Part shown: positions 13,401 through 64,000 of the stretch, one piece after another
How positions within the stretch are numbered: position 1 is the first letter of the stretch
Layout of the letters: the number at the start of each line of letters is the position of its first letter
Virus record (IMG/VR): IMGVR_UViG_3300032295_002257
Span: 15,492-79,491 of that record
From: a virus
Lineage: Duplodnaviria > Caudoviricetes
Reading direction: 5' to 3' (one strand)
DNA: 64,000 bases
Translations under genes and position numbers: made by a program
The notes under the pieces: generated by a model
Told to the model about the DNA's origin: nothing
Seen by the model: only the letters and a program-made list of their open reading frames with translations
Database searches by the model: none

Positions 13401-13621
13401 GAACACTCAGTTAAGAACCAACTAATCTCTCTTACCAATTCCGGAGACATTTCCGTTTTAGCATGAGCAATATCGCCTGCTAAATAAATGATAGAATCTT
13501 CAATGTTATCACTTTTTACTTTTTCCAAAAATTGATTAAATATCAATCTATACTCACTATGTCTTTTTAGATTACGAATGTGTAAATCTGCTAAGTGATA
13601 GATGTGTGTAATTTTTCTCAT
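10448..13621 (-). CDS. Fused Mre11/SbcD nuclease and Rad50/SbcC ATPase (gp47-gp46-like recombination nuclease)
   Basis: Phosphoesterase motifs DLH, GD, GNHD, HG and GDIH. Then Walker A PNASGKSS, coiled coil with CEIC hook, signature CSGMERF, Walker B VIDEGFGTLD and H-loop IISH. Confidence 0.9.
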   Translation of the reverse strand: MRKITHIYHLADLHIRNLKRHSEYRLIFNQFLEKVKSDNIEDSIIYLAGDIAHAKTEMSPELVREISWFLTECSKLKEVILITGNHDCNLNNNHRLDVLTPIIDNLQNPRIHYYRDTGVYNLHNLTFAVYSILDKKENWPKGKEIEGENKICLFHGPVNKSQTDVGYVVSSNSFTTDMFEGFDMVLMGDIHKRQVLQTYNPSNNQPIVVYAGSLVQQNHGELLEGHGYLLWDVEKKTFEEFDIKNDYGYLTIDIYKGNIPQWVYDELDTKLPKNPRLRLRFNETDATTTKACITELSRIFKTTEVTVSRVDTMARLRSNNGLNGNIVGNVKDETFQNHLIGDYLDRRYLLEQDHLDAITEINKLTNQKVDNTDKMDNILWIPKKLEFSNMFSYGTDSVVKFDNAKGIVGIFAPNASGKSSLFDILSFCIFDKTSRTSSSKNILNNQKENFHCKFEFEIDGISYFIERIGKLNKTQTSVKVDVNFWRIVDGVEESLNGEQRRDTNKNIEKYLGNFEDFILTTLSLQGNNALFIDKSQSERKEVLSQLIGVDIFDKLYQIAADDNRETATLVKKFKSDDFPQKLADIETELDGCKTQYEQFNEEIQSLNKVEEDLNESIIELKSQIINTGSFDYDITQLESNKTKLENNLQKQESTKSELNERLEKLIPLEVQLSGLLDGLNETDIKEGIGKLNTFKEQHRTAKNEIEKLEIKYQSLVDKKAHLDLHKYNPDCEICMDNSKSILTSKEEAIEAIEKIKDTIEEHTTESAQLNLEINELLPFEDKLKTLNDLKEKHNKVDKDIFNINSQISACDLQIHKIEGDIEKNTSNIDEYYKNEEQIVANKKIKEELDGLQTQMTGLKSKMGNTNDGMMGVFKRQTTLESQRDVYEERINEVKELEHKNKLYEYYLNALSKDGVSLELIEKAIPAIEGEINNILGQIVDFGMELELEGKNINANLVYGDSKWSLELCSGMERFISGLAIRIALINVCNLPRPNFLVIDEGFGTLDNENLTSLYMLFSYLKTQFDFVMIISHIDSMRDVVDTLMEIKKVNGFSQVKF

Positions 13622-14553
13622 AGATTATTAATCTTGGTTAGAATCAAATCATCCCAACCTGTTTGTGTTTGTGTTTTAATTAATTCGTTTACTTTTTGAA
13701 ATCCCATTTCTCCTGCATCTTTATCCGATGGGATTATATTTTTTACTGTAATTCCATTCTTAATAAAATAATCAGCATGTTTAGTAGAATCATCAATAGC
13801 ATCGGAATCCAATAAAATATTAATTTCCTTAACTCCTTTTTCTCTAATTTTGTTTTTTAGTTTATTAAGTAAGAATTTACCCAACATAGGAATTGCATTT
13901 CTTTTAACTGAAAATGAATCAAATACACCCTCTACTAATGTTATTGGTTCATTCCAATTAATCATATCTTCAAATACAATAACATCTCTATTAACGGGTG
14001 GATTCTTATACTTCATTTTCTCATCCTCATAAAAAGAACGAGCTACAAAGTAGTTAAGTTCACCACTCTCATCATAGGACGGTATAATAATTCTACCACC
14101 ATATAATCCATCTTCACAATATCCAATGTTGTATTTTACAATATCTTTTGCGGTTATATTTCTATTTCTAAGATATGCTATAGCATGATTATATAATGGA
14201 TTAAATCCCTTTGGTTTTATATATAATTGCTTGAATTCTTTTGGTAAGAATAGTTTAGGTTCTTCTTCAGTAAATGTGGAATTGGTTTCAATATCACCAT
14301 AGATGTCCTTCAATTTTGATATTGAACGAATATCTACATTAAGTTTACGAAGTAGAGAATTTATCGTTCTACCTTTAGCGTTACAAACCCAGCAATGCCA
14401 GTTTTGATTATCTAAGTTAATTTGAAGTTTTTTCTTATGGTGATGGCAGAATGGACAGTGGTGTGCTTGCTCATTACCTTTAAGGGATGAACCTACGCCT
14501 AAAGCGTCATCTAATATGTTGATTACCACTAACTTCTGCTTTCCACTTAGCAT
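13618..14553 (-). CDS. DNA primase (Zn-binding plus TOPRIM)
   Basis: CPFC...CWVC zinc finger, GRIIIP, EGVFD TOPRIM glutamate, LDSDA DxD. Confidence 0.88.
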   Translation of the reverse strand: MLSGKQKLVVINILDDALGVGSSLKGNEQAHHCPFCHHHKKKLQINLDNQNWHCWVCNAKGRTINSLLRKLNVDIRSISKLKDIYGDIETNSTFTEEEPKLFLPKEFKQLYIKPKGFNPLYNHAIAYLRNRNITAKDIVKYNIGYCEDGLYGGRIIIPSYDESGELNYFVARSFYEDEKMKYKNPPVNRDVIVFEDMINWNEPITLVEGVFDSFSVKRNAIPMLGKFLLNKLKNKIREKGVKEINILLDSDAIDDSTKHADYFIKNGITVKNIIPSDKDAGEMGFQKVNELIKTQTQTGWDDLILTKINNL

Positions 14554-15547: not shown

Positions 15548-16252
15548 TTAATCTTTTTTCCATCCACCACCCAATTCTTTATATTTCTTTGCAGCCCATC
15601 CGTTTGCGTATGCTGATGGATATACATCGAATTTTTGTTTAGCTTGAGATTTTGCATAAGACCATTTTTCCGGGTCAGTTGGTGTATTTTTTTCTAAAAA
15701 TAGATTTAGTTTTTGCTCTACAGTTAATTTCATACTTTCGTTTTTATTTTTACCTGCACAATGTGCTTTTTGTGAGAATCCTTTTGGGTTAGAACAATTA
15801 ATTGAATCTTTGTATTTCTGAGACCAATCTTCATTTACTCCAGTCTTTACAAATGTAGGTTTCTGTCCTTTCTTTTGCTCACCACCTTTTTTAGCATCTC
15901 CTGCATCTTTTTGTGCGGCTCTTTTTCTTTTTACAAATGATGCTCTACCATCTTTACCCAACTTAGCAGCCTTTTCATTTGAAAGACATGCTGCATAAGC
16001 TGAACCCTCTTCACTATCCCCACACTTACCCGTTTTCTCTCCTTTACTATTATATCTATCCCATCCACCCGTCTTACCTTTACCAAACCATTTACGAAGG
16101 TCTTCACTAATTGGTGTATTATCAGTTCCACACTTATGACAAGTATATGGATTATCACCACCATCGGATATATTCCAAGTCCAATGGCATTTATCGCAAA
16201 TCACTTTGCCGCCATCTACCTTTTCGTTTAATATATCTTTTAACTTAATCAT
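15548..16252 (-). CDS. Putative internal head protein with MIKLKDILNE leader; Zn-ribbon and DUF5872-like modules
   Basis: CDKC...CHKC ribbon, EDLRKWF...KCG module, C-terminal KFDVYPSAYANGW; Lys-rich; late motif at 16261-16268. Confidence 0.55.
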   Translation of the reverse strand: MIKLKDILNEKVDGGKVICDKCHWTWNISDGGDNPYTCHKCGTDNTPISEDLRKWFGKGKTGGWDRYNSKGEKTGKCGDSEEGSAYAACLSNEKAAKLGKDGRASFVKRKRAAQKDAGDAKKGGEQKKGQKPTFVKTGVNEDWSQKYKDSINCSNPKGFSQKAHCAGKNKNESMKLTVEQKLNLFLEKNTPTDPEKWSYAKSQAKQKFDVYPSAYANGWAAKKYKELGGGWKKD

Positions 16253-30677: not shown

Positions 30678-31649
30678 TTATGCTTTTGTTTTTTGAGATT
30701 CAACTGCTTGTTTACCATTTTCATTTAATCTCCACAATGCAACTGTAGAAAAATCTACATTATTTTTTTGAATAGCTCTTTGAGTAAAATCACTTACCCA
30801 TTTAAATCCTGTCCAAACTTGTATGTGTCCATATGGTTTATTATTTGTATAACCCATAACAACTATATCCCCAACTTGCCATTGTGATGCATTATCAAAA
30901 TAAGATAAAGATATTTTAACTTTATCATTGTAATAAACTTTACCACCTATATTATTTGCAAATGAACTTCTACCCCCACCAGTACTTGGATTTTTAAAAG
31001 AAAACCAATCAGCGTTTCCACTAATTCTCCCCAACCCAGAAACACCAGTTAGAGCGGCAACAACCGCTTGAGTACCTTGTGGACACAAACCATGTATTCC
31101 CTTAATATATCCTGATTTTAAATTTTCATATCTAACTTTTGGATTTTTTCCAAGTTTTGGAGCCAATCCTCCTGCAATTTTTAAAAGTTCATCTAAATTC
31201 TTATAACCACTTTTTAGAGTATTATCAGTTCCAGTAACTTCCACAACACCCTGTTCATATAATGCATTATCAATAATTTCTGCAACAACATTATTTAATT
31301 GAGTTGCGGCAGTTTTTCCTAAATCATCAGTTGCTCCACTTAATGAAATTTGTTGATCAATTTTATTAATATCGGGATTGATAATAGCTTGAACTTCTGG
31401 ACTATTTTTATCTAAAGGTATTTTACTCCAATCAAGTTTATCATAGACATTAACGTTTGGTTGCGATGGAGATGCAGGTGGAACTGTGTAACCCGTCCAC
31501 AAAACAATACCTGGTGCAGGAGTTGATAATGGTGGATATAATGATACAGTGCTAGCCATACCACTAACAGTAGTTAAATGAATTGTTGCATATCTTATAA
31601 ATTCATCTACAATTAATTCGGTATTATTGGTTGGTGGTATTGCTGCCAT
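30678..31649 (-). CDS. Virion-associated peptidoglycan amidase (CHAP/NlpC-P60-like C-terminal domain)
   Basis: Candidate catalytic Cys (GLCPQG) and His (YGHIQVWTG..WVSDF). Confidence 0.65.
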   Translation of the reverse strand: MAAIPPTNNTELIVDEFIRYATIHLTTVSGMASTVSLYPPLSTPAPGIVLWTGYTVPPASPSQPNVNVYDKLDWSKIPLDKNSPEVQAIINPDINKIDQQISLSGATDDLGKTAATQLNNVVAEIIDNALYEQGVVEVTGTDNTLKSGYKNLDELLKIAGGLAPKLGKNPKVRYENLKSGYIKGIHGLCPQGTQAVVAALTGVSGLGRISGNADWFSFKNPSTGGGRSSFANNIGGKVYYNDKVKISLSYFDNASQWQVGDIVVMGYTNNKPYGHIQVWTGFKWVSDFTQRAIQKNNVDFSTVALWRLNENGKQAVESQKTKA

Positions 31650-39179: not shown

Positions 39180-39752
39180 CTAAATGCGATTCCAACCTTT
39201 TTGCAAATATGAATCTATTTTTTTAGCTTTTACAAATTCCATTTCACCATTTGGTCCTTGCAACATAACTCTCTCATTTCTACCTGCTTCTTTTGTTTTT
39301 ACGATAGTTTCAGAATACTGACGAGTAGGGTCTGTTATATCGATACCATTAATTGCATCTATTGCTCTTTGTGCCAATACAGCTTCCAATAAACCCGCAT
39401 CCATAAAGAATTCATCGGCATCTTTCCATTCTTCCTTATCTGCTTTGAATTCAACCTTTCCTAAATTATCGGTATTAACAATCACCCAAGGAACTCTGAT
39501 AGTTTTTCTAACTTTATTCTTATTAGTATCCTTTTCAAAATAGACCAATGGCTTATCTGAGAATTGTGAAATTGTTGGATTTACTAATGTAAGTTCATCA
39601 TCGATTTCTTTTAATCTAATGGTTACAATTCGTTTATCCATATCAACATCGGATGCGTTAAATACAACACCTGTTAGTTTTGATATTCTATTTTTATATT
39701 CGGCTATATCGGTTGCCGTAATTTCAGATTGATTTATTTTTCTTACTATCAT
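39180..39752 (-). CDS. Peptide deformylase-fold protein lacking catalytic residues
   Basis: PDF spacing kept (GVVFNASD, RIVTI, LVNPTI, YFEKD, IR, AVLAQRAIDAINGI), but no GxGxAAxQ, EGCLS or HExxH. Confidence 0.6.
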   Translation of the reverse strand: MIVRKINQSEITATDIAEYKNRISKLTGVVFNASDVDMDKRIVTIRLKEIDDELTLVNPTISQFSDKPLVYFEKDTNKNKVRKTIRVPWVIVNTDNLGKVEFKADKEEWKDADEFFMDAGLLEAVLAQRAIDAINGIDITDPTRQYSETIVKTKEAGRNERVMLQGPNGEMEFVKAKKIDSYLQKGWNRI

Positions 39753-48871: not shown

Positions 48872-49705
48872 TTAATTTGCCGATATTTGGATGAAAACCT
48901 CCTCCTCAACAGGTGTATAATCTACTAGTATTTGGGTAGGATTTACCTCCCCCAATTCAATCTTCTCCTGCTCCTCATATCTCTCCAATACCCTTTTAAC
49001 GATACCTGAACGAATACAATCTGCATTTGAGAACTCTATCTGATAGATACCCTCAACTCCACCTAATCGTTTCCATACATCATAAAACCCACTTTTTTGA
49101 TAAGCAGGTATTCCATTGGAACGATATTTGTCACATTGTGAAAGGTCACCCTCTATAATCAATTTTGAAGTATCTGATATACGAGTTATTAGGGTTTTCA
49201 ATTGAAGTGGTGATGCGTTTTGCGCCTCATCTAAAATGATATATGAATTTTCGATATTAATACCTCTTAAAAAGTTTAATACCTTAAATTCAATTGCACC
49301 CTTTTCTATTAATTTTTTTGTTTCAAACTCTCCTATAATTTTGTATAAAATATATAAAGATGATTCATTATGAACTTCCATCTTCTCCATTAAATCTCCA
49401 GGCAAATGCCCTAATTTATCTTCACCACCCACATCAACTGTTGGGTTGATTATTATTAATTTTTCTATATCAGAACCTTTATTTAACAACATCTCTAATC
49501 CCTTTTGAATTGATATGTATGTCTTTCCCGCACCTGCTAAAGCATGAGCCATAATAATGTTACTATCTTCCCTTTCTATTGCTTTATAAAATCTTTTTTG
49601 ATTTTTAGTTTTGAATTTAACTTTACTCACCACTTTTGGAGTTGTATGAGTTTTTGGAATTTCGGTTATATCCGAACTTACTACCACCATTTTTTTTCTG
49701 CTCAT
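48872..49705 (-). CDS. phoH: PhoH-like ATPase
   Basis: LAGAGKT Walker A, LGHLPGD, FLRG, LDEAQN and GDLSQCD. Confidence 0.9.
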   Translation of the reverse strand: MSRKKMVVVSSDITEIPKTHTTPKVVSKVKFKTKNQKRFYKAIEREDSNIIMAHALAGAGKTYISIQKGLEMLLNKGSDIEKLIIINPTVDVGGEDKLGHLPGDLMEKMEVHNESSLYILYKIIGEFETKKLIEKGAIEFKVLNFLRGINIENSYIILDEAQNASPLQLKTLITRISDTSKLIIEGDLSQCDKYRSNGIPAYQKSGFYDVWKRLGGVEGIYQIEFSNADCIRSGIVKRVLERYEEQEKIELGEVNPTQILVDYTPVEEEVFIQISAN

Positions 49706-54317: not shown

Positions 54318-54968
54318 TTATTTTTTTAGTTTAACTTTCCAATACACACCACCTTTGATATATGGAGTAAACACACCATTAGTTCCATCGATTGTTGTAT
54401 TGTTGACACCCACACCTAAATTGTATATCTTATCGGATTTAGAATTAATTAATAATCCAGCCCCTATAAAATTTACAAAATCACCTCTATTAAATCCACC
54501 CTCTAAACCAACAAACACTTTTCGTTTAAAAGGTTCGGGTATTTTAAGAGTATCTACTATTGGTGTTATTTTAGTTGTGTATTTTCTACCTATTAATTTG
54601 TTTTGTGAAATCGTATCGGTTATTGTAATAGAACCCTGTTGTTTATCAAACTTATATGTGTTTACAAATACGTTCTTACTATTCAAATAGTTGTTTACAA
54701 TAAAGCTTGTGTCTACTAATGCTTGAATTGTATCGTGAACTGCAAATGGTATTAGTTTTTCAACTTCTATCGGCACTTCAACTTCATATGGAACTTCTAC
54801 TTCAATCGTATCGTGTATTGGAGTTAGATATTCATTACCAACTTTAATTTGCTTCTCAACAATTTTAGTTCGTTTAGGCATAACACCAAACGGGTCAAAA
54901 GATACTAATGATAGTATAATCACTAATATTAAAATGATAATATTTTTTAACTCTAAATGTTTTTTCAT
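54318..54968 (-). CDS. Membrane-anchored envelope protein with beta-rich C-terminus
   Basis: N-terminal TM, VEVP repeats, C-terminal YIKGGVYWKVKL. Confidence 0.55.
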   Translation of the reverse strand: MKKHLELKNIIILILVIILSLVSFDPFGVMPKRTKIVEKQIKVGNEYLTPIHDTIEVEVPYEVEVPIEVEKLIPFAVHDTIQALVDTSFIVNNYLNSKNVFVNTYKFDKQQGSITITDTISQNKLIGRKYTTKITPIVDTLKIPEPFKRKVFVGLEGGFNRGDFVNFIGAGLLINSKSDKIYNLGVGVNNTTIDGTNGVFTPYIKGGVYWKVKLKK

Positions 54969-54969
54969 A

Positions 54970-55395
54970 TTACTTAACTAAAAATAATACAGTCATTATT
55001 AATGCAATACCAGAACCCGCTTTATAAACAGCTGTCTTAAACTTTTGAACTTTAAGTTCTTTTAATAGTTTATCTGACTTTTCTCTTTCCAAAGAAAATT
55101 GTTGGTCTTTCTTATCTATAATAACATTTAAGTTAGTGATTTTTTCATCTTTCAAACTATCCTTTTGTTTATATAGGTCAATTTGTAGATTCTTCTCATC
55201 TAACATTTTATATACTTCCTTTAATTCAATTTTAGCACCATCCCCACTAAGAATATCCTTAATGACTAGACGTGCTGTCGGAACTTTTAAGGGTACTATC
55301 GAGTCTTGCTTCACCGGCGTTTGATTCGTAACGGTCTGAGAAAAACTTGAGAAGGTCGTGAATAGTATAATCACTAACAGCATTAACTTTTTCAT
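54970..55395 (-). CDS. Spanin-like protein (signal peptide, coiled coil, C-terminal TM)
   Basis: Its start overlaps the 3' end of the upstream coiled-coil gene, an Rz/Rz1-like arrangement. Confidence 0.5.
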   Translation of the reverse strand: MKKLMLLVIILFTTFSSFSQTVTNQTPVKQDSIVPLKVPTARLVIKDILSGDGAKIELKEVYKMLDEKNLQIDLYKQKDSLKDEKITNLNVIIDKKDQQFSLEREKSDKLLKELKVQKFKTAVYKAGSGIALIMTVLFLVK

Positions 55396-55654
55396 TTGTT
55401 TGTGTTTTAATTAGGTTTATGTTTTTGTTGATTGTTGTTACTCTTGTTTCCACTACATTAATTTCATCATCTACTTTAGCAATATGGGTATCAAGTACTT
55501 CGTTTGCAGTTTCAACTGAATCTATCTCATTTTGTAAAGAATCAATTTTTCGGTTATAAGCTTCCACATCAGTACGAATACTATTGTTAGTAAAAATGTT
55601 ATAACCCACCAAAATAATAAGAATAACTAATATGATATTTTTTAAAATGTTCAT
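55259..55654 (-). CDS. Inner-membrane spanin-like coiled-coil protein
   Basis: N-terminal TM then a long heptad coiled coil; late motif at 55678-55685. Confidence 0.55.
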   Translation of the reverse strand: MNILKNIILVILIILVGYNIFTNNSIRTDVEAYNRKIDSLQNEIDSVETANEVLDTHIAKVDDEINVVETRVTTINKNINLIKTQTNEKVNAVSDYTIHDLLKFFSDRYESNAGEARLDSTLKSSDSTSSH

Positions 55655-55789
55655 AATTTATTTTTTTGTTTATGTGTATAAATATAGTTTTGTATAATTT
55701 AAAGAACTTTCATCAACTTATTAGGAAAATCCTATTTTTCTTTATTTTTTAACATTTATGTCGATATATATATTAAAATAATATAATAT

Positions 55790-55915
55790 ATGATACATTT
55801 ACTTATAACTCTTATCTTAATATGTGGTTCATTGGGAGCTACTATTTCTAAAACAACAAAGGATTATGGATTCAGAAAGCAACGTCAACATACTGAACCA
55901 TTAAAGTTGGATTAA
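55790..55915 (+). CDS. Small membrane/secreted peptide (41 aa)
   Basis: Not in the ORF track: MIHLLITLILICGSLGATISKTTKDYGFRKQRQHTEPLKLD. Its stop overlaps the convergent stop. Confidence 0.4.
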   Translation: MIHLLITLILICGSLGATISKTTKDYGFRKQRQHTEPLKLD

Positions 55916-57372
55916 AACATCATCTTTGAACCAATTTGGAAATTGTTCAATAAAGTAAATTTAGGTTCAAATGTCATAGCTCCTCTATATGATGTTGATA
56001 GTGCAAATCTTTTACTAATTTTGTAATCATATCCTAACCCAATAATTGCACCAGGCGTTCTACTTACTGAACTAGCTCCTGTCATTGTATTCCAAGCTAT
56101 TGGGGATTGCATTACGAATACTTGTGGAGTTAGAGTTACCTTTCTATTATATTGAAATGGTTTCATCCAAAATCCAACTGCGGATGCACTTAGAGATACA
56201 TCATATCCACCACCACCCACTCTCTGCATCATAAGGGTTATAATACCAACATTATATCCCATCGTTCCCCATTTAGGATGTGGTTTGATGTAGGTGTATC
56301 CATTAAGATTCATTAGAGTTCCTTTAAGGTAAGCAAATGTAGTTCCATATGAATGTATTGCGTTTAGTTTACCATCCTCAAAATCCATCTTAGTAATACC
56401 ACCACTTAGGGCGAATTGGTCCATAGTGCTCCAAATCAATGCGGTAGCTGAATATGATTTATCACCCATTAGAGATGAACGAGATACACCTACACTCATC
56501 ATTACAGCGTATCTACCTTCGTTATCTTCAGTTCCCGCCAAATCAGATGCTAACATCATTGGGTTTGCTACCGATTTCTTTTTTTCCTCTTTTTTCTTTT
56601 CTTCCTTCTTCTCCTCTTTCTTTTCTTCTTTAGATTCTTCCTTCTTCTCCTCTTTTTTCTCCTCTGACTTTGATTCTTCTTTCTTTTCTTCAGATTTGCT
56701 TTCAGACTTAGATTCCTCTTTTGATTCAGACTTGCTTTCAGACTTGCTTTCCGATTTTGTTTCAGATTTGGTCTCCGTTTTGGTTTCGGTTTTTGTTTCC
56801 GATGATGAAGATGAACTGCTTGATGAAGATGATGAAGAACTACTGCTAGAACCTCCAGAAGCACTGCTTCCTGATGAGGAAGATGTTGGTGGTGGTGTAG
56901 AACTAGCGGATGAAGATGCTGCTCCAGAAGCGGCTCCAGATGCTGCCCCACTTGCAGCTCCAGATGCCGCAGAACTTGCGGCTCCACTAGCTGCAGAACT
57001 TGCAGCAGAAGATGCGGCTGAACTAGCTGCTTGAGTTGCTGCTGCCGATGCCGCTTGAGATGTTGCCTGTGCTACTGCATTAGTTACCGTTTGTTGAACT
57101 ACTTGAGAAGTTGGACATCCCATTGTTGAGTATGCCGTATAAGTTGCGGTTATCCAAAGTTGAACCGCACCTGCCATTACTTCTTGTGGTGAGAATACTC
57201 TGATCTGACTGTAAAACGATACCGTTGCAAACCCATTTACCATTGTTGTAGTGGCTACTTTAATTTCACCAGTACATTTATCCTTATAAGTTTGGGTATA
57301 GGTTTGCCCTATCGCCGTTTGAGCGAATGAACATATAACAATTATCAGTAAAGGAAGTATCCATTTTTTCAT
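55912..57372 (-). CDS. Secreted protein with low-complexity tether and C-terminal outer-membrane beta-barrel (autotransporter-like layout)
   Basis: Signal peptide, Ser/Ala then Glu/Lys linker, amphipathic strands, terminal Phe (QIGSKMMF). Confidence 0.6.
   Translation of the reverse strand: MKKWILPLLIIVICSFAQTAIGQTYTQTYKDKCTGEIKVATTTMVNGFATVSFYSQIRVFSPQEVMAGAVQLWITATYTAYSTMGCPTSQVVQQTVTNAVAQATSQAASAAATQAASSAASSAASSAASGAASSAASGAASGAASGAASGAASSSASSTPPPTSSSSGSSASGGSSSSSSSSSSSSSSSSSETKTETKTETKSETKSESKSESKSESKEESKSESKSEEKKEESKSEEKKEEKKEESKEEKKEEKKEEKKKEEKKKSVANPMMLASDLAGTEDNEGRYAVMMSVGVSRSSLMGDKSYSATALIWSTMDQFALSGGITKMDFEDGKLNAIHSYGTTFAYLKGTLMNLNGYTYIKPHPKWGTMGYNVGIITLMMQRVGGGGYDVSLSASAVGFWMKPFQYNRKVTLTPQVFVMQSPIAWNTMTGASSVSRTPGAIIGLGYDYKISKRFALSTSYRGAMTFEPKFTLLNNFQIGSKMMF
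56570..57080 (-). repeat. Coding low-complexity repeats (AASSA/AASGA, poly-S, KSES/KTET, EEKK)
   Basis: Visible directly in the DNA and the translation. Confidence 0.8.
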
Positions 57373-58197
57373 TTAGAAGTTTACACCCAATCCAAAAGTT
57401 TTGCTATTGATTATCGGGTCATAATCAAACTTTATTGTTAAATTTTTAAAATCATGTAACGCTCCTATTTTAACAGTTGTAAATCTATCTCTATATTTTG
57501 GAAAAGTAATATATCCAATATCATCCTTACCTCTCCACTTCACATCTTCAGTCACACTACCAATCATCATGTGGATACCTGTTCTTTTGATTCTCTTACC
57601 AATACCAACATAGAAACTACTTTGTTTTACCAAATCATTCACCATTGGAAAATCGACTTGTGTTATATTACCATAAGGAAAGAATGTTGAATTATCTCTT
57701 TCAAATGTTGAATTGTATTCAGCTATAAAATATGCTTTGTTTCCCATTGTAAAAAATCCACCAATTTGATTGCCGCCTGTTTTCTGAATACCAAAACTAA
57801 TTACAGGCTTCTTACCTCTAATTGTATCTCTCTTACCATCGTTATAAACATAAATTCTTGCAGGTTGGCGGTATCCCCAATCGTTCCAATAGAACGATGG
57901 TTGCCAAAAGTTCCATCCAAAGCCAGGTGCTCCCCACATATTCCATCTGTTCCATCCCCATCCCCAATCATTCCATAACCAAGGGTTATTGTTAATGATT
58001 ATGTTAGAACCAGGTTTTGTTTGTCGTGGTCTATTGAACTCTCTCGGTCCATCGTTTCTCCACATACTTATATCACTTCTCTGCCCTTGTATGGAAGGAG
58101 TTGATGTTCTAGGTTGTGGATGATTACTTCTCCAATTACTAACTTGTGAGAAAGCTAGTGTTGGGATAAATGCCAATAAAAATAATAGGTTTTTCAT
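57373..58197 (-). CDS. Outer-membrane beta-barrel protein with Trp/Gly/Asn-rich N-terminal segment
   Basis: Signal peptide, WNDWGWGWNRWNMWG, alternating strands, terminal FGLGVNF. Late motif at 58219-58226. Confidence 0.65.
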   Translation of the reverse strand: MKNLLFLLAFIPTLAFSQVSNWRSNHPQPRTSTPSIQGQRSDISMWRNDGPREFNRPRQTKPGSNIIINNNPWLWNDWGWGWNRWNMWGAPGFGWNFWQPSFYWNDWGYRQPARIYVYNDGKRDTIRGKKPVISFGIQKTGGNQIGGFFTMGNKAYFIAEYNSTFERDNSTFFPYGNITQVDFPMVNDLVKQSSFYVGIGKRIKRTGIHMMIGSVTEDVKWRGKDDIGYITFPKYRDRFTTVKIGALHDFKNLTIKFDYDPIINSKTFGLGVNF

Positions 58198-58226
58198 AGG
58201 TATATTATTTAGTTACCTATAAATAT

Positions 58227-58253
58227 AAAAAAAGGGAGTATTCACTCCCTTTT
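58227..58253 (-). terminator. Intrinsic terminator after the TonB receptor-lipoprotein pair
   Basis: AAAGGGAGT-ATTC-ACTCCCTTT hairpin with A tract. Confidence 0.75.
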
Positions 58254-58257
58254 AATG

Positions 58258-59457
58258 TTAATTTCCTTTAGATGGGAATCTAGTCCATCCATTAACCCAT
58301 ACAGGCTTATCTAATTCAGGTATTACCACATCTATCTCCTTATTACTCTTTGAAAGTGCTAGAGTTTTCAATTGGTCATTTGTTAAGATTGTAGTTGCTT
58401 TACTGATAAAGTTTAAGGTGGGATTAAATGTTCCTACTGAATTGTTTTCAAATACTGAAACTCCATCTTTTACGAATCCTGCAGTTTCATTACTTTCCAA
58501 ACTTAAACCACCTTTCATCCAACCCCAAATAATACTATTCTTCATTGTGAATTGAGTTGCTCTCCTAAATCTCAAACCTAAATTGTGGTTTGCTAAAGCA
58601 GAAGATACATTTGGTCCAACTAAAATCATATTGTAAAGTTTTGGATGTGTGTATGGAGTTGCCGTTGAACCTGTTCCATCATTATCACATTCTACACCAT
58701 TTCCAGCATCACCATTATCTACGAATTGTGGGTCTCTCTTTGCTACACCATTTGTAATAGTTCCAGTGAATCCAAAATCAAAATCAAAATCATCATCTGC
58801 GGTTGCGAATGCATATAAGTTTCTAGGTGATACAGTTCCACCAAAGAATTCAAATGCATCATCGTTGGCGTAAATAGTTTGAACATTTTCAATGATTGTT
58901 CCACTACCAACTCCACCTAATGTTAGTGCGTTGATTTCAGAATTTGGCATTGCTGCGATACCTGCGTATTCTATTCTTACAAAACGAAGAACACCACTAT
59001 TATCTAAATCGTTTGTTCCACCATAAGGTCTACCAATACCACCTTCGATTGTTGGTTCGGATGTTCTATTGGTTTTTGCTCTACCCAGTATAACGATACC
59101 ACCCCAATCGCCAGGTTGCTTCTCACCATTTGCTCTACCCGATGTAAATACAATTGGTTTGGTTGCAGTTCCTTCCGCAATTATTTGTGCTCCTCTTTCG
59201 ATACACAATGCTCCCTTTTCAGCAATATCGGATACGATTGTTGTACCCGGCTGAATGATAAGTTTAGCTCCATCGGTTACATATACATAACCTTTCAATG
59301 TCCAAACTTTATCCGCAGTTAAAGTTGTTGTTGTATTGATGTTGCCTGAAAGTGTAGTTGATGTTGGGATGTTAATTGGTGCAGTATCTCCACCACCTAA
59401 TTCCTTTTCGCAACTCAATAATCCAAATGCTAAAATAGCCACTAATAGTTTTCTCAT
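58258..59457 (-). CDS. Surface lipoprotein, right-handed beta-helix-like, partner of the TonB-dependent receptor
   Basis: LAFGLLS-C lipobox, GDWGGIVILG, VRIEYAG, EINALTLGGVGSGT, DDAFEFFGG and DDDFDFD. Confidence 0.8.
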   Translation of the reverse strand: MRKLLVAILAFGLLSCEKELGGGDTAPINIPTSTTLSGNINTTTTLTADKVWTLKGYVYVTDGAKLIIQPGTTIVSDIAEKGALCIERGAQIIAEGTATKPIVFTSGRANGEKQPGDWGGIVILGRAKTNRTSEPTIEGGIGRPYGGTNDLDNSGVLRFVRIEYAGIAAMPNSEINALTLGGVGSGTIIENVQTIYANDDAFEFFGGTVSPRNLYAFATADDDFDFDFGFTGTITNGVAKRDPQFVDNGDAGNGVECDNDGTGSTATPYTHPKLYNMILVGPNVSSALANHNLGLRFRRATQFTMKNSIIWGWMKGGLSLESNETAGFVKDGVSVFENNSVGTFNPTLNFISKATTILTNDQLKTLALSKSNKEIDVVIPELDKPVWVNGWTRFPSKGN

Positions 59458-61931
59458 AAATTTAAATTTAATGTTAATGAAATTGTTTGTTCGTTGTTTG
59501 TTTTTATCAAATTTCGGTTTTGTAACTTTTGATAATAGATTGATGGTTGCGCAAATACATCACCTATTGCCAATTTTATTTCTCCTTTCGGAAGTTTATG
59601 TAAAAGAGTTATATCCAATACATCTCTACTATTTTCAAAGATGTTTGGGTAACCCTGAAATCCTACTGCTGATATTCTATCTCCAACTCTATTGTAAGTT
59701 ATGTTGATAGTATTTTTCTTTTTGTGAATGTTTACTCCACTATTTAACACATAGTTTGATTGTCCTTGCAATTGTCTTTTTACACCATTCACTTCTACTT
59801 CCGAATTCATTACCGAAGCGTTTGTGTAGAAATCAAACCAATCATTTATCTTTTTACGAACTTCCAATTCAACACCATATAGGATAGCTGAATTAGGGTT
59901 TGTATAAGTTAATAATAAGTTTGATGGAACTGAACCATCTGCTACAATTTGTTCAATCGGTTTAATGAAGTTCTTACCAAATAGAGAAAGTGAAATGTTC
60001 TCACCTGCCTTTGGATACCATTCGTATTTAAGGTCTACATTATATATGTCAGATTTTTCTAACTTTGAGTTTCCTAATATTTGTGCGTTTCTAACAAAAT
60101 CATAATAAGCAAAATTAGCTACTTCTCTAAACTCCGGTCTTGCTAATGTTTTACTTAATGAGAATCTATACTTTGTTTTTTCTTCGTTGTATGAAATGTT
60201 TAAGGATGGTAGTATATCCAAATATTCTCTATCTACATTTACTTTCTGTCCACTAAAATCTGCGGTTGATACATCGAATAAATTATACTCACCTCTTAAT
60301 CCGGTGTTTAATTTCCATTTACCAAATTCAGTATCATACATTGTGTAAAGAGAACCCAAATCAAAATCGGCTGTGTATTTGTCCGTATTGTTTGTAATCT
60401 CATCTAACATATCAGTTGATAGGTTACGAAATATTCTAGCATTAAATCCTCTGATTCTTTTTAAGTATCCACCACCCACTTTAATATCTCCAAATTGTTT
60501 GTTGATATTACCATTGAAAGAATTCTCATCCATCACACTCCAAAAACGATAGGTATCTCTCCATGCAGTTTGGTATGGCTCATTTACTCCTAATGATTTT
60601 GTAATTGGATTAATTCGGTAATCAGGTTGCTCTCTGAAAGTATATGTGTATCCTACATTGAAATCTAATGTCTTAACCTTACCATCTAATTGAGAACTGA
60701 TTACAACATTGTTAATATGATTTGATGCAGTAGATAAAACATTCTGAACATTATCAAAGTTATCACCATTACGGGTTAAGTATGTATCATCTTTTTGATA
60801 GTTCACTAATGTTTTCCAACTATATCTATTCTCACCTAAATAGGTCAAATTGAATAAACCATTTGTAGAAAATCTTTTTGTAAATAAAACATCTTTGTAA
60901 TCATACGCCAATTCAGTTGATGATTGGTAATCCTTTCTATCAATGTTATTTAGTGTGAATGAGTTTCGGATTGTAGAACTCAATAGAGAATTCCATTTAC
61001 CTTTCGTATATCCGAATGATAATCCTCCGTTTAAGTTTGGTAGTGATTGAAATGATTCCGTAGATGGGTTACCAAATAGTTTAGTGTATGCTCTCTTATC
61101 GCCATTTCCACTAATTCGATATTTGTATGTTGATGGGAATGTGGAAGGGAAATCGGTAGATTGAACTAACTTGAAATCTTTCGAAGTTGAAACCGAGCCC
61201 CAACCACTTCCCAATGAGATATTAAAAAAGTTGTCAGATACTTCTTTTGTTGTTATTTGAACCAGCCCACCACTCCAATCACCTGGCAGATTTGCTGATG
61301 CTGATTTGGCAACTATGATGTTATCGATTAGTGATGTTGGAATTATATCGAATGAAAATGCTCTCCTATCAGGTTCAGTTGATGGTAATTGTGTTTTGTT
61401 TAGTAGTGCCGAATTGTATCTATCTGCTAATCCTCTTACTAATACAAACTTATCGTTTTGTATTGTTACACCACTTACTCTTTTAAGTGCATCACCAACA
61501 TTTCTATCGGGAGTTTTCTTAATAAAATCAATTGATAATCCATCCGATACAACATTACTATTTCGTATTGTTCTTACAACTGCCGCTTCGGTTACCTTTT
61601 GAGAAACACTTCTTACAACAACTTCGGATAGCTGTTTTGCATCATCAGGAAATACAATATCAAATTCAGTGTCCTTATCAAACACTACTTCGTTTGTATA
61701 TTCAGTATATCCAACAAATGTAGATTTGATTTGGTATTTTCCTTCTTTTAATACAATAGAGTATTTCCCATCCGTATCTGATATGGTTGTAAATACATCA
61801 CCATTTTGGTTTTTGAAAGAAATGTGTGAAAAGTAAAGTGTTTCCGATTTGGATTTTGTAACACCTTTGATAGTTACTTGCGAAAATAATATATTCGGCA
61901 AAAGTAATAATAAAAAAAGAAACGATTTCAT
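59454..61931 (-). CDS. TonB-dependent outer-membrane receptor (N-terminal carboxypeptidase-regulatory-like domain, plug, barrel)
   Basis: LSEVVV TonB-box-like segment, plug DALKRVSGV...VRGLADRY...DIIPTSLID...GGLVQITT, barrel with SKTLARPEFRE and NVDLKYEWYP. Confidence 0.92.
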   Translation of the reverse strand: MKSFLFLLLLLPNILFSQVTIKGVTKSKSETLYFSHISFKNQNGDVFTTISDTDGKYSIVLKEGKYQIKSTFVGYTEYTNEVVFDKDTEFDIVFPDDAKQLSEVVVRSVSQKVTEAAVVRTIRNSNVVSDGLSIDFIKKTPDRNVGDALKRVSGVTIQNDKFVLVRGLADRYNSALLNKTQLPSTEPDRRAFSFDIIPTSLIDNIIVAKSASANLPGDWSGGLVQITTKEVSDNFFNISLGSGWGSVSTSKDFKLVQSTDFPSTFPSTYKYRISGNGDKRAYTKLFGNPSTESFQSLPNLNGGLSFGYTKGKWNSLLSSTIRNSFTLNNIDRKDYQSSTELAYDYKDVLFTKRFSTNGLFNLTYLGENRYSWKTLVNYQKDDTYLTRNGDNFDNVQNVLSTASNHINNVVISSQLDGKVKTLDFNVGYTYTFREQPDYRINPITKSLGVNEPYQTAWRDTYRFWSVMDENSFNGNINKQFGDIKVGGGYLKRIRGFNARIFRNLSTDMLDEITNNTDKYTADFDLGSLYTMYDTEFGKWKLNTGLRGEYNLFDVSTADFSGQKVNVDREYLDILPSLNISYNEEKTKYRFSLSKTLARPEFREVANFAYYDFVRNAQILGNSKLEKSDIYNVDLKYEWYPKAGENISLSLFGKNFIKPIEQIVADGSVPSNLLLTYTNPNSAILYGVELEVRKKINDWFDFYTNASVMNSEVEVNGVKRQLQGQSNYVLNSGVNIHKKKNTINITYNRVGDRISAVGFQGYPNIFENSRDVLDITLLHKLPKGEIKLAIGDVFAQPSIYYQKLQNRNLIKTNNEQTISLTLNLNL

Positions 61932-61953
61932 AAATTATTAAGTTAGTTCCTCA

Positions 61954-61961
61954 ATAACTAT
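61954..61961 (-). promoter_or_regulatory. Variant late-promoter motif ATAGTTAT upstream of the TonB receptor
   Basis: Lies 22 nt upstream of ATG 61931, the same spacing as the ATATTTAT sites. Confidence 0.5.
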
Positions 61962-62012
61962 GGAATCGCTTCTCTAAATAGGTTAAATCTATATTATGAA
62001 ATTATTAAATTA

Positions 62013-62387
62013 CTAATCTTTATATAATATGTTTGAAAACTTTGAATACATATATTTTTCGAACAATCGGTTTTCTAATTTTTTGAATTTAGCTGATTGA
62101 TCTCTTTTACCTTTATATGCATCCCCTTCCGTTTCTAATTTTATCTGATGTGTTAGTTCGTGTATTATTGCATATTCGGGGTCTATCATTTTTTTTACAT
62201 CAAAAGAAATGTAAAGAGGTTTCATCGTTTTAACATTAAATGTTGTTGCAGCTCCACCATACGCAACGTTACCAAATCTTACAGGTAACGGAGTTATCTT
62301 TTCGTTTTTACATAAGGCCTCATAATACGCTTTTATATTAGCTGGATTACGGTCTCCTTCGTTTAATATATTATTTAATTTTATCAT
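62013..62387 (-). CDS. Putative internal head protein, HExxH zinc-metallopeptidase-like, with MIKLNNILNE leader
   Basis: IIHELTHQ motif; leader shared with 15548-16252. Confidence 0.55.
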   Translation of the reverse strand: MIKLNNILNEGDRNPANIKAYYEALCKNEKITPLPVRFGNVAYGGAATTFNVKTMKPLYISFDVKKMIDPEYAIIHELTHQIKLETEGDAYKGKRDQSAKFKKLENRLFEKYMYSKFSNILYKD

Positions 62388-62608
62388 AGAACTATTTTTT
62401 TATCTATGTTATATTTTTCGTAAAAGTTATTAAGAGTTTTGACTAAATCATTAATCATATCCTTTGCTTCTTGTTGAGATTTAATATCTCCTGCTGCAAA
62501 ATCCGTCTTTGTTAATATAGTAGATATTATTTCTCTAGCACGCATACCTTGTACTGAAAACTTTTCATCAATGGTTTCTTCTACTAATATATTCTTTAAC
62601 TTAATCAT
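62384..62608 (-). CDS. Putative internal head protein with MIKLKNILVEE leader
   Basis: Shared N-terminal leader. Confidence 0.5.
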   Translation of the reverse strand: MIKLKNILVEETIDEKFSVQGMRAREIISTILTKTDFAAGDIKSQQEAKDMINDLVKTLNNFYEKYNIDKKIVL

Positions 62609-63330
62609 TAGTTTGGAAAAATTCCTTTTTTAATCATTCTATCTAAAATTCTAGCACAAGCTATATCCAATGCTTTCTTAGTTGCAATTGAAATAGTTGA
62701 TTGATTGAATTTCATTTCATCAACAGTTGCATCTGATAATAGAGTTAGTTCTCTTGTTGTTTTTGCTTCACCCAATCCACTTGCTCCAAATACTACTCCA
62801 GTCTCTGCGTTGGTAAAACGAACCTGTAAACCAATACGAGTTACCATAAGGTTCTTCACACCATCTTTAAGGTTTACTGTCTCATCTTCCGATACTGAAT
62901 AATCATAACATTCAATTGTCACAAAGTATTCTGCTAAGTTAATCTTTCCTCTACCATCTAATTTGTTTTCGGAAATACCAGCTTGCGATGCTTGGAATTG
63001 CTTAACCATTCGGTTCTTAATTTCCGTTTTATCTTCGGTAAATTTGAAACGATTTAGGTTTTCCAAATATTCCATTGAAATGTTAGCCACACCCAAACCA
63101 ACTCTTTTTTCTTTAAGTTCAGGATACATTTCATACATCTCATCACTAATACCTGCTTTTAGAATTTGGATAGGAATTTGCTTTCCTTCATAATCTAAGA
63201 ATTGAGAAATATCAATTGCGGTTTCAAATGATGCTTTATATTGCTCGGTTTTTGTGCTTCCTACTGTTTGAGCAACAACCACAACACTGCTTAACAAAAA
63301 GAAACTTAATAATAGAGATAATTTTTTCAT
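62608..63330 (-). CDS. CsgG/HfaB-like exported protein
   Basis: Signal peptide; LGVANISMEYLENLNRFKF, AEYFVTIECYDY and VRFTNAETG follow the CsgG-fold pattern. Late motif at 63355-63362. Confidence 0.55.
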   Translation of the reverse strand: MKKLSLLLSFFLLSSVVVVAQTVGSTKTEQYKASFETAIDISQFLDYEGKQIPIQILKAGISDEMYEMYPELKEKRVGLGVANISMEYLENLNRFKFTEDKTEIKNRMVKQFQASQAGISENKLDGRGKINLAEYFVTIECYDYSVSEDETVNLKDGVKNLMVTRIGLQVRFTNAETGVVFGASGLGEAKTTRELTLLSDATVDEMKFNQSTISIATKKALDIACARILDRMIKKGIFPN

Positions 63331-63362
63331 ACATAGTTTGTTTATATTATAGATATAAATAT

Positions 63363-63391
63363 AAAAAAAGGGAGAAATTGTGTTTCTCCCT
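63363..63391 (-). terminator. Intrinsic terminator after the DUF2589-like genes
   Basis: AGGGAGAAA-TTGTG-TTTCTCCCT hairpin with A tract. Confidence 0.75.
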
Positions 63392-63397
63392 CTTAAT

Positions 63398-63874
63398 TTA
63401 CTTTACATTTGGATCTTCCAAATTTTTAATGTATTCATCAATCAACCTACTTACGGCTTCAGGTTTTTCATCCGCTTTAAACTTAACCTTTATTTTAGCC
63501 ATACCTGCTTCAGTTGGATTGTAACCGGAATCAACTTCAATCCCTTTGATATTGTGTTCATATCCTTTTTTCTTAAATAACCCCAATAGAGATTTTTTAA
63601 GACTGGATACTTCTTTATCTTCATCACCAAATATAAGCCTACAAGAGAACTCAATATCTAATTCATCCAATCCAATAGATGAGTGGTCCGCTAAAATATA
63701 AAGAGGAACAACCAAATCTTTACCACCTATATTAAAGGAAGTAGTTTTGGGTGTTCCATCTTCATTGAAATAGTTTCGGAGAGCATTAATATGCTGTCTT
63801 TCACTTATACCTTGAGAAACCATAGCGGCCTCTAAGAGACCGCCAACTAGTTCCTCTACATTTAATCTTGCCAT
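63398..63874 (-). CDS. DUF2589-like protein
   Basis: N-terminal helix, GTPKT, VPLYIL, LDELDIEF and IKVKFKADEKPEAVSRLID. Confidence 0.6.
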   Translation of the reverse strand: MARLNVEELVGGLLEAAMVSQGISERQHINALRNYFNEDGTPKTTSFNIGGKDLVVPLYILADHSSIGLDELDIEFSCRLIFGDEDKEVSSLKKSLLGLFKKKGYEHNIKGIEVDSGYNPTEAGMAKIKVKFKADEKPEAVSRLIDEYIKNLEDPNVK

Positions 63875-63900
63875 AATATATAACCTTTATTTTTTAATTA

Positions 63901-64000
63901 TTACTTTCTTTCTTCAGTAAGTGGAATTAAAGATGGTTCTAACATTTGAGTTAGGTAATCTGATAATTTCAACATACCTTCAGTTGCTGGTAATTGTTCA
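63901..64000 (-). CDS. C-terminus of a second DUF2589-like protein (5' end off the window)
   Basis: EQLPATEGMLKLSDYLTQMLEPSLIPLTEERK-stop; PxxEG followed by a helix mirrors the KPEAV end of the next gene. Confidence 0.5.
   Translation of the reverse strand, partial: EQLPATEGMLKLSDYLTQMLEPSLIPLTEERK

Follow-up and report, generated by a model that had tools for sequence, protein, structure and literature searches.

The DNA analysed here (the window) is a 64,000-nucleotide stretch of the IMG/VR virus record IMGVR_UViG_3300032295_002257, and its last 8 kb, positions 55,912 to 64,000, carry a run of genes for exported proteins. At the centre of this run is an operon that encodes a TonB-dependent transporter (TBDT; 59454..61931, minus strand) and a surface lipoprotein of the Beta_helix_4 family (58258..59457, minus strand). 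The start of the lipoprotein gene overlaps the stop of the TBDT gene by 4 nt, and the operon is closed by an intrinsic terminator, a 10-pair stem followed by a T run (58230..58253, minus strand). The window has a GC content of ~31%, and all of its sizeable frames are on the minus strand. Since it carries genes for T4-type baseplate wedge proteins, an SbcC/gp46-like nuclease and similar products (an endolysin domain, PhoH, dCMP deaminase and a metallophosphoesterase are also encoded), we assign it to a large T4-like myophage. The terminal stretch forms an accessory island in this phage, a lytic one with a freshwater Bacteroidota host, and its genes for exported proteins are arranged in separate transcription units. 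As stated in an earlier annotation made from the letters of this DNA without database searches (the sequence-only reading), every listed frame in the stretch is intact and five of the proteins are exported. All of these frames are on the minus strand, and N-terminal signal peptides are found at 59454-61931, 58258-59457, 57373-58197, 55912-57372 and 62608-63330.

The TBDT is 825 aa long and consists of a signal peptide, a CarboxypepD_reg-like domain, a TonB-box-like LSEVVVR, a plug and a barrel. Matches to PF13715 (CarbopepD_reg_2), PF07715 (Plug; 35.2 bits against a cut-off of 23.9) and PF14905 (OMP_b-brl_3, a 22-strand barrel; residues 415-821, 92 bits against a cut-off of 27) were each above the Pfam cut-off. 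TIGR01782 was matched at 181.8 bits, under its subfamily cut-off of 310. Homologues at 64-97% identity are encoded on 122 IMG/VR contigs, and the counts of phage loci given below refer to the 80 loci that were kept out of these 122. LSEVVVR lies at approximately residues 101-107, ahead of the plug, and the pattern LxEVxV(R/K/Q) is kept in 73 phage copies, in both long and short forms, as well as in the aligned bacterial proteins. By analogy with Bacteroidota receptors, LSEVVVR is a putative TonB box. Phage and bacterial TBDTs share 48 invariant columns, and the ratio of nonsynonymous to synonymous substitution rates (dN/dS) for the TBDT is 0.07-0.14. About one-third of the phage TBDTs (in loci L015, L024, L025, L035-L039, L045-L049 and L057-L074) are ~750 aa long, without the N-terminal CarboxypepD_reg domain, and retain the TonB-box-like motif.

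The partner lipoprotein (399 aa) is assigned to PF28492 (Beta_helix_4) by precomputed Pfam annotation, as are its relatives; this family is newer than the Pfam release used for our direct scan. The lipobox reads LLSC, and its cysteine, Cys16, is invariant in 44 sequences. The cysteine is followed by K-(D/E)-LGG in the phages and by SK-DDD in bacteria, residues that we take to resemble the Bacteroidota surface-exposure signal. The AlphaFold2 (AF2) model of the lipoprotein (pLDDT 91) is a right-handed parallel beta-helix; at a TM score of 0.91, it resembles Atlas clusters whose members are 100% Beta_helix_4. VIA aligned the model with numerous beta-helix enzymes and tailspikes at Z ~23, and no one family stood out; Foldseek found no PDB structure for it at E <=0.001, and a profile search of solved structures with the lipoprotein alignment gave no match. 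The dN/dS of the lipoprotein is 0.05-0.16. An exhaustive search yielded 6579 representative relatives, many of them multi-domain proteins secreted by the type IX secretion system (T9SS) and some of them single-domain lipoproteins of 440-480 aa. Neither the TBDT nor the lipoprotein matched a SusD or SusC family in Pfam or NCBIfam.

In Bacteroidota and neighbouring groups, a single-domain Beta_helix_4 lipoprotein is almost always encoded directly downstream of a TBDT of the same architecture, as seen in nearly all of 80 bacterial loci. PitA/PhoU genes accompany the pair in ~12 of the closest bacterial loci, some of which also have OprP and a metallophosphoesterase; the gene order in L081, for example, is PHO4 (PitA), PhoU_div, Porin_O_P, TBDT, Beta_helix_4. 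The pair in L082 is flanked by a T9SS-secreted purple acid phosphatase and an alkaline-phosphatase-superfamily phosphodiesterase. In a Chryseobacterium locus (L163) the pair is divergent from a regulator and a kinase whose best NCBIfam matches are PhoB and PhoR, under the equivalog cut-offs. The metallophosphoesterase encoded elsewhere in the window is unrelated to that of the bacterial Pho loci beyond shared motifs.

A pair of this kind has been described in Flavobacterium johnsoniae (Lidbury et al. 2021, PMC8115612). Fjoh_0545 is a TBDT with pf07715, pf13715 and pf14905, and Fjoh_0546 ('FII') is a pectin-lyase-fold lipoprotein encoded in a phoBR cluster, 'PUSIV', together with OprP. Both were induced by 8-10 log2 on phosphate depletion, and FII is a major exoprotein (PMC8115612). 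The same study reported that the lipoproteins FI-FIII resemble Caulobacter ElpS at 31-36% identity, and suggested plant glycans or organic phosphorus as the substrate (PMC8115612). The phage pair matches Fjoh_0545/0546 in its set of Pfam domains, its gene order and the beta-helix of its lipoprotein. Judged by homology, the phage pair appears to descend from a phosphate-starvation-induced Bacteroidota pair of this type (Fjoh_0545/Fjoh_0546, 'PUSIV'). Nutrient uptake, one of the roles that the sequence-only reading had offered for the stretch, is thus the best reading for the TBDT pair, and it can be sharpened: the contexts of the bacterial homologues, together with the published induction (PMC8115612), point to phosphorus specifically.

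The region upstream of the operon was examined in bacterial leaders aligned on the -7 box TAnnTTTG and in phage leaders aligned on a TAnnTATTG box. Bacterial leaders contain four to five tandem 11-bp [GT]TAACA units that end 4 nt before the TAnnTTTG box, and three or more hexamers were found in 23 of 62 bacterial leaders compared to 9 of 1240 background windows. Such arrays lie ~60 nt upstream of the TBDT start in L081, L099, L106, L107, L132 and others, with four to six units (six in L106). Because the 11-bp geometry of the arrays is that of PhoB-family operators, they are a candidate Bacteroidota Pho box; we found no description of an 11-bp [GT]TAACA array as a Bacteroidota Pho box in the literature searched.

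In the window, the TBDT operon is preceded by three hexamers at an exact 11-bp period, which form a degenerate Pho-box-like array (61976..62008, minus strand) in the register of the bacterial [GT]TAACA arrays. The in-register units are TTAATA (62008-62003), ATAATA (61997-61992) and TTAACC (61986-61981), all on the minus strand. A TAGTTATTG box (61952..61960, minus strand) follows 4 nt after the last 11-bp unit, ~21 nt before the ATG, and would be the -7-like element of the operon. The corresponding element in relatives is TA(A/G)TTATTG, often ATAATTAT, which stands behind hexamers phased at 11 bp and is followed by GGAACTAAC. The box is kept as TAnnTATTG in 40 phage leaders and is distinct from both the host-type TAnnTTTG and the late motif ATATTTAT described below. 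Aligned in register, 26 distinct phage leaders show TTAAYAATTTG, DTAATAT.. and often TTAACC.., then one or two degenerate A-rich units. Two or more in-register hexamers occur in 17 of 27 distinct TBDT leaders, compared to 5 of 331 other TAnnTATTG sites of the same loci, and on inspection those five also proved to be TBDT leaders. Throughout the 80 loci, and at the sole such site of the window, two or more units stand directly upstream of a TBDT gene and nowhere else. As in-register hexamers are restricted to these sites, we interpret the TBDT leader as a Pho-type promoter that is specific to this operon and has degenerated, and control of the operon by host PhoB is plausible from its anatomy. 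An idea that the phage copies have no Pho boxes, which came from a strict count of hexamers (0/78), was dropped after the in-register leader alignment.

Trees of both proteins were used to place the phage copies among their bacterial relatives. In the lipoprotein tree, 34 phage representatives form one clade (support 99) that is sister to L082 (support 100), and this phage clade branches from within the Pho-linked Chitinophagales and Sphingobacteriales. L082, the nearest bacterial pair, comes from a Spirosomataceae metagenome-assembled genome from Lake Mendota (positions 5497-9212), and is 63% identical in the TBDT and 70% identical in the lipoprotein. In the TBDT tree, L082 falls inside the phage clade, the stem of which measures 0.89 substitutions per site. 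The phylogeny that had been proposed as a check, phage clade versus nesting in the host, thus places the phage copies in one clade, with L082 inside it. The phage and L082 proteins also share a trimmed size: their TBDTs are ~825-833 aa long compared to ~930-945 aa in other bacteria, and their lipoproteins ~400 aa compared to 445-470 aa. A phage-type TBDT was found in only one (L082) of 81 sampled genomes of its family. Given the trees, the common trimmed size and the isolation of L082 among the 81 genomes, the data fit one capture by a phage lineage, followed by long evolution there and by transfer back to a bacterium on at least one occasion, with the direction put forward as a proposal. L082 may represent a phage-to-bacterium transfer or a donor lineage.

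The end of the window is the end of the 79,491-bp contig, so the exported-gene stretch is terminal, with no phage DNA beyond it, and we argue from relatives that it is native to the phage. The lipoprotein gene adjoins the TBDT gene directly downstream in 71 of the 80 loci. In L005, L006, L023 and L031 the pair lies inside the baseplate cluster, flanked by homologues of window genes 30678-31649 and 30093-30590/27627-29666; in L012, L014, L015, L024, L036 and L044 the island is beside spike genes; and in L045-L049 and others it follows tail genes. TBDT carriers include three CheckV-complete genomes, of 171 kb (with terminal repeats), 209 kb and 326 kb. The earlier assignment of the stretch to native phage DNA holds: relatives have the pair amid baseplate or spike genes, complete phage genomes carry it, and its neighbours stand behind a phage late motif. 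The opposite explanation, an assembly chimera in which 8 kb of bacterial chromosome is joined to a phage contig, would draw on the position of the stretch at the very end of a 79.5-kb contig, on the bacterial homologues of the TBDT and lipoprotein, and on a GC content of up to 0.39 at 56-58 kb. However, the rise in GC is due to a region of Ala/Ser/Gly repeats, late motifs and genes with a MIKL leader are interleaved with the stretch, and the phage copies all fall in one clade. Furthermore, the Ser/Ala-rich gene of the island (55912-57372) and a homologue of the gene at 54318 remain adjacent, over the supposed junction, in 12 relatives. The idea of a host junction was rejected because phage structural genes flank the pair in many contigs, complete phage genomes included, and we regard a chimera as extremely improbable.

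The other island genes are less constant companions of the TBDT. Of the 80 loci, 25 also have a CsgG-like gene, 22 the Ser/Ala-rich gene, 11 the Trp-rich gene and 8 DUF2589. The stretch had been read as one coordinated late module, and this does not agree with our data: only the TBDT-lipoprotein pair is consistently linked, and the TBDT operon does not have the late motif. All of the island genes tested are under purifying selection (dN/dS 0.04-0.24). The window TBDT is 96-97% identical to those of L002-L004, whereas the window baseplate wedge protein has no full-length match above 75%. Given this contrast, the varied insertion sites and the inconstant island genes, the pair behaves as an accessory cassette that would move among related phages and insert at differing sites. 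The window TBDT is closest to that of L003 (96%) and the window lipoprotein to those of L014/L015 (97%), the L003 lipoprotein being only 86% identical. This pattern suggests recombination between the TBDT and lipoprotein genes among co-occurring phages.

Homology, architecture, synteny, purifying selection and promoter anatomy are what we observe for the pair, and we consider it moderately likely that it is a phosphorus importer that serves host uptake during infection. The TBDT and the lipoprotein would be exported in the infected cell by the host Sec, Lol and Bam machinery, and the lipoprotein would be flipped to the cell surface, where it would capture a phosphorus-bearing substrate. The barrel would then import this substrate with host TonB energy. 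Expression would be driven by the operon's own promoter, with its two to three Pho-box-like hexamers at 11 bp followed by the TAnnTATTG box, and the phosphorus supply would be raised for the replication of a genome of at least 170 kb in phosphorus-poor lake water. The substrate, the formation of a complex, the regulation and the benefit to the phage are thus the steps that we infer.

Several observations weigh against such an importer. One relative, G004, which is 96% complete, is without the lipoprotein, so the pair is dispensable. The phage TBDT is ~100 residues shorter than the bacterial ones and stands on a long branch, so its function may have shifted. By a strict count of [GTC]TAAC[AG], none of 78 phage leaders has three or more units. 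The phage hexamers (TTAATA, ATAATA) consist mostly of A and T and stand in AT-rich DNA, and the units closest to the box have degenerated, so that PhoB may no longer control the operon. It should also be noted that the proposed orthology with Fjoh_0545/0546 rests on domain architecture and context.

TonB-dependent receptors are frequent phage receptors, which would also allow a role in receptor masking or exclusion. On this explanation, the TBDT and its lipoprotein cap would displace, mask or mimic a host TonB receptor and thereby block superinfection or the loss of progeny on debris, for which the T5 lipoprotein Llp, acting on FhuA, and lambda Lom, acting on LamB, serve as models. The pair lies in or beside tail and baseplate clusters in many relatives, the neighbouring exported proteins are late genes, and the trimming of the TBDT by ~100 residues on a long stem would fit altered surface loops. 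A 2026 preprint on outer-membrane proteins of huge phages proposes a role of this kind (bioRxiv 10.64898/2026.10.24.761521). However, the TonB box, the plug and the 48 invariant columns are conserved, and such transport features would be needless in a decoy; the partner lipoprotein is equally strongly constrained, the operon is behind a Pho-type leader and not a late promoter, and the bacterial relatives are all in phosphorus-acquisition contexts. We therefore consider control of superinfection or of the receptor landscape unlikely. Import of a different nutrient (iron, a glycan or a vitamin), or constitutive expression without a phosphate logic, has to be reconciled with a nearest bacterial pair, the phage-type L082, that sits between two phosphatases, with a phage clade nested among Pho-linked loci, with phased hexamers that are retained at the TBDT gene only, and with a phage that also carries phoH. 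We view this alternative as improbable too, even though plant glycans are among the substrates suggested by Lidbury et al. for the bacterial family, the beta-helix matches polysaccharide lyases, epimerases and tailspikes at Z ~23 with no best family, the stem branch of the TBDT is long, and the hexamers are degenerate. A phosphorus importer thus remains our preferred interpretation of the pair.

The neighbouring transcription units have a different promoter. The motif ATATTTAT occurs in 16 coding-strand copies in the window, all intergenic, mostly 27-34 nt before an ATG and at many structural genes, with two copies on the other strand; it is a genuine promoter motif of the phage, probably of a late class. 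According to the sequence-only reading, three units of the stretch start at this same motif. Two of them do, at 63355..63362 (minus strand; 32 nt before the ATG of the gene 62608-63330) and 58219..58226 (minus strand; 29 nt before the ATG of 57373-58197). The third, ATAGTTAT at 61961-61954, is a different element and belongs to the TBDT leader. Another promoter class in the window matches the Bacteroidota host consensus TTTG-N19-TAnnTTTG, so that three classes can be told apart: host-type TTTG-N19-TAnnTTTG, late-type ATATTTAT(A) and the TAGTTATTG box (example sites are at 2862, 9542, 19146, 30623 and 35000, and upstream of 843-2498, 13618-14553, 39180-39752, 43068 and 46618). The TAGTTATTG box is found at the TBDT and, without phased hexamers, upstream of phoH (48872-49705).

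The gene at 62608..63330 (minus strand) encodes an exported protein of 240 aa with a CsgG fold. Its AF2 model (pLDDT 70) has three long hairpin strands, and Foldseek matched it to CsgG (4uv2) with an E-value of 1.9e-7. VIA aligned it to CsgG 7brm_A with Z 11.8 (176 residues, rmsd 4.6); over model residues 36-240, CsgG chains scored Z 11.2-11.8, compared to 9.4 for PelC and 8.7 for LptE. There was no Pfam match to the CsgG family PF03783, even at E up to 5, and no precomputed family among the 120 homologues listed of 5872. Alignment of the protein's family with Chryseobacterium CsgG by hhalign gave a probability of 0.1, from a shallow profile, and a profile search of solved structures with the CsgG-like alignment gave no match. 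The signal peptide ends in VVVAQ, with no lipobox cysteine, and so provides no lipid anchor. Atlas clusters of this protein are virus-only. The earlier CsgG-like call therefore holds for the fold, but not for membership of the CsgG Pfam family or for lipidation. Export of an adhesive polymer, which had been suggested alongside it, finds no support, as no curli-type substrate or CsgE/F partner was seen among the neighbours.

Downstream of the TBDT operon are two further exported proteins, encoded by abutting genes. The first (57373..58197, minus strand; 274 aa) is rich in Trp, has a signal peptide, ends in GVNF, with a C-terminal Phe, and is a candidate small outer-membrane barrel. Its Atlas clusters are virus-only, a language model gave a weak lead to OMP_b-brl_2 (0.90; 164 features), and its dN/dS is 0.14-0.24. 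The second (55912..57372, minus strand; 486 aa) is rich in Ser and Ala. It has a small N-domain, a low-complexity linker of ~170 aa that is first Ala/Ser and then Lys/Glu/Ser/Thr, and a beta-rich C-domain that ends in Phe. None of the 139 homologues of the C-domain carries a Pfam family, and the C-terminal residue is Phe or Leu. Relatives of both proteins are on phage-type contigs, and the Ser/Ala-rich protein has no Atlas lead to barrel families. Neither protein had a match in profile hidden Markov model searches, and no relation was detected among the Trp-rich, Ser/Ala-rich and 54318 proteins. Both had been called beta-barrels; what speaks for this is the signal peptide, a hydrophobic or aromatic C-terminus and the weak lead (0.90), which leaves the two as candidate barrels. 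The CsgG-fold protein and the two barrel-like proteins belong to phage-only families behind the late promoter. Their site of action is probably the outer membrane towards the end of infection, where they would affect the timing of lysis or remodel the surface. None of the three is an obligate partner of the importer.

At the contig end lies a DUF2589 protein of 158 aa without a signal peptide (63398..63874, minus strand; PF11655 at 5.7e-13, 49.9 bits; dN/dS 0.04-0.10). It is next to the last 30 codons of a paralogue that is cut by the contig end (63911..64000, minus strand). The ends of open reading frames in L007, L024 and L035-L038 are 97-100% identical to this fragment. Its product is 100% identical to the end of L037:7134-7748, a protein that matches DUF2589 at 3.1e-30 (106 bits), and we therefore identify the truncated gene as a second DUF2589 gene. 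The DUF2589 pair that had been proposed is thus real, but it is only loosely linked to the rest of the island (8 of 80 loci). An intrinsic terminator with a 12-pair stem and a T run follows the pair (63366..63394, minus strand). We found two passing mentions of DUF2589 in the literature searched. Upstream of the DUF2589 pair in relatives, L037:389-4644 encodes large proteins with LCCL, C-type lectin and weak cohesin domains, which are probably fibres or adhesins.

Between the CsgG-fold gene and the TBDT leader are two small genes on the minus strand, for a 74-aa protein with the leader MIKLKNILVE (62384..62608; no family match) and a 124-aa protein with the leader MIKLNNILNE (62013..62387; an 84% homologue in L001). 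The two MIKLxxILxE genes reported earlier in the stretch (starts at 62608 and 62387) are thus present, and a third was found at 16252. The common leader of the three minus-strand genes, MIKL(K/N)(D/N)IL(N/V)E, resembles the T4 capsid-targeting sequence, which is cut by the prohead protease after (L/I)xE. By this analogy the three proteins are candidates for head-internal proteins that would be injected. Homologues of 15548-16252 adjoin the TBDT in L007, L015, L018 and L048.

On the other side of the island, three minus-strand genes without family matches (54318-55654) stand behind a late motif at 55685. The first (55259-55654) encodes an N-terminal membrane helix and a coiled coil; the second (54970-55395), which overlaps it by 137 nt in another frame, encodes a signal peptide, a coiled coil and a C-terminal membrane helix; and the third (54318-54968) encodes a membrane-anchored beta-rich protein. 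As this layout recalls i-spanin/o-spanin pairs, the three genes may form an envelope-spanning lysis set. A possible plus-strand frame of 40-odd codons at ~55790-55921, the sole candidate gene of that strand nearby, was read by eye; it would encode a small hydrophobic peptide and converge on the end of 55912-57372. A megablast of the region against GenBank phages returned no match, a PHROGs search gave nothing useful for any protein of the stretch, and PADLOC returned only coiled-coil noise, on 55259-55654.

Phosphorus is the usual limiting nutrient of lakes, and close copies of the TBDT-lipoprotein pair are numerous in lake metagenomes. If our interpretation is correct, infection would alter phosphorus scavenging by abundant lake Bacteroidota. 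The phage copies would then also offer a small, trimmed form of an uncharacterised bacterial importer that could help in the search for its substrate, and the phased hexamer arrays offer a testable candidate for a Bacteroidota Pho box. In a bolder picture, the importer pair, the unlipidated CsgG-fold protein, the tethered barrel proteins and the spanin-like genes would form one phage outer-membrane programme, which feeds the cell under host PhoB and then re-surfaces or perforates the membrane. The importer could return to bacteria, as in L082, and phages would serve as a shuttle and workshop for lake phosphate-starvation uptake systems. We put this forward as a speculation that is rather unlikely to hold as a whole.

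The sequence-only reading had ranked the stretch as its best candidate for an undescribed system, which is an overstatement given precedents for TonB receptors in phages (PMC9723777; bioRxiv 10.64898/2026.10.24.761521), for phage CsgG (PMC9004378) and for phage phosphate-acquisition genes. In the literature searched, the freshwater cassette had not been identified with the Bacteroidota phosphate-starvation TBDT/Beta_helix_4 pair, nor had its Pho-type leader. CsgG (and CsgF) are encoded, without curli subunits, by pelagimyophages and the methylophage Melnitz, where a role in lysis timing was proposed (PMC9004378). The window shares with these aquatic T4-like myophages a CsgG-fold outer-membrane protein without curli subunits, but its protein is similar at the level of fold only (Z 11.8) and has no CsgG Pfam match, lipobox or CsgF-like secreted neighbour. 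TonB receptors have been reported in the megaphages Mar_Mega_1 and LR745206, where they were called SusC-like or left unassigned (PMC9723777); that of LR745206 is 27.5% identical to the window TBDT over 94% of its length. A preprint lists 1,603 barrel proteins in huge phages, including a Lak-phage receptor that is transcribed in metatranscriptomes, and mentions phosphate-acquisition genes near barrel proteins in aquatic phages (bioRxiv 10.64898/2026.10.24.761521). The megaphage receptors likewise are phage-encoded 22-strand receptors from phages of Bacteroidota. However, no Beta_helix_4 partner or Pho link has been described for them, and the window family is a separate, closer-knit freshwater clade.

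With the SusC/SusD systems the pair shares a TonB-dependent barrel and a co-transcribed surface lipoprotein, and a lid-and-barrel action may be supposed by analogy. The phage partner is a beta-helix, however, and not a SusD tetratricopeptide-repeat protein, and the barrel is OMP_b-brl_3, with no SusC signature. ElpS of Caulobacter crescentus is a phosphate-starvation-induced surface lipoprotein linked to phosphatase activity (PMC2996285); it differs in that its release is aided by a type II secretion system and no TBDT partner has been reported. The closest counterpart is Fjoh_0545/0546, which has in common with the phage pair a Plug, CarbopepD_reg_2 and OMP_b-brl_3 TBDT and a pectin-lyase-fold lipoprotein directly downstream. 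Bacterial members of the phage pair's family lie beside PhoBR-like, PitA/PhoU, OprP and phosphatase genes and behind 11-bp arrays. In contrast, the phage pair is carried by a lytic phage, its TBDT is ~100 and its lipoprotein ~50 residues shorter, its leader has only two to three AT-rich units and the TAnnTATTG box, and it has no adjacent pho genes.

Among phages, the nearest parallel in function is offered by the phosphate genes of cyanophages, pstS, phoA and phoH, which respond to host PhoBR. To our knowledge, the known phage phosphate genes act in the periplasm or the cytoplasm (pstS, phoA, phoH). Both cases involve a host phosphate-starvation gene in a T4-like aquatic phage, a possible Pho box upstream and the presence of phoH. 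What differs here is that the system is a two-part, TonB-dependent uptake system of the outer membrane in phages with a Bacteroidota host: a complete TonB-energised unit, apparently drawn from the Bacteroidota phosphate-starvation response and found on more than 100 large freshwater phage contigs.

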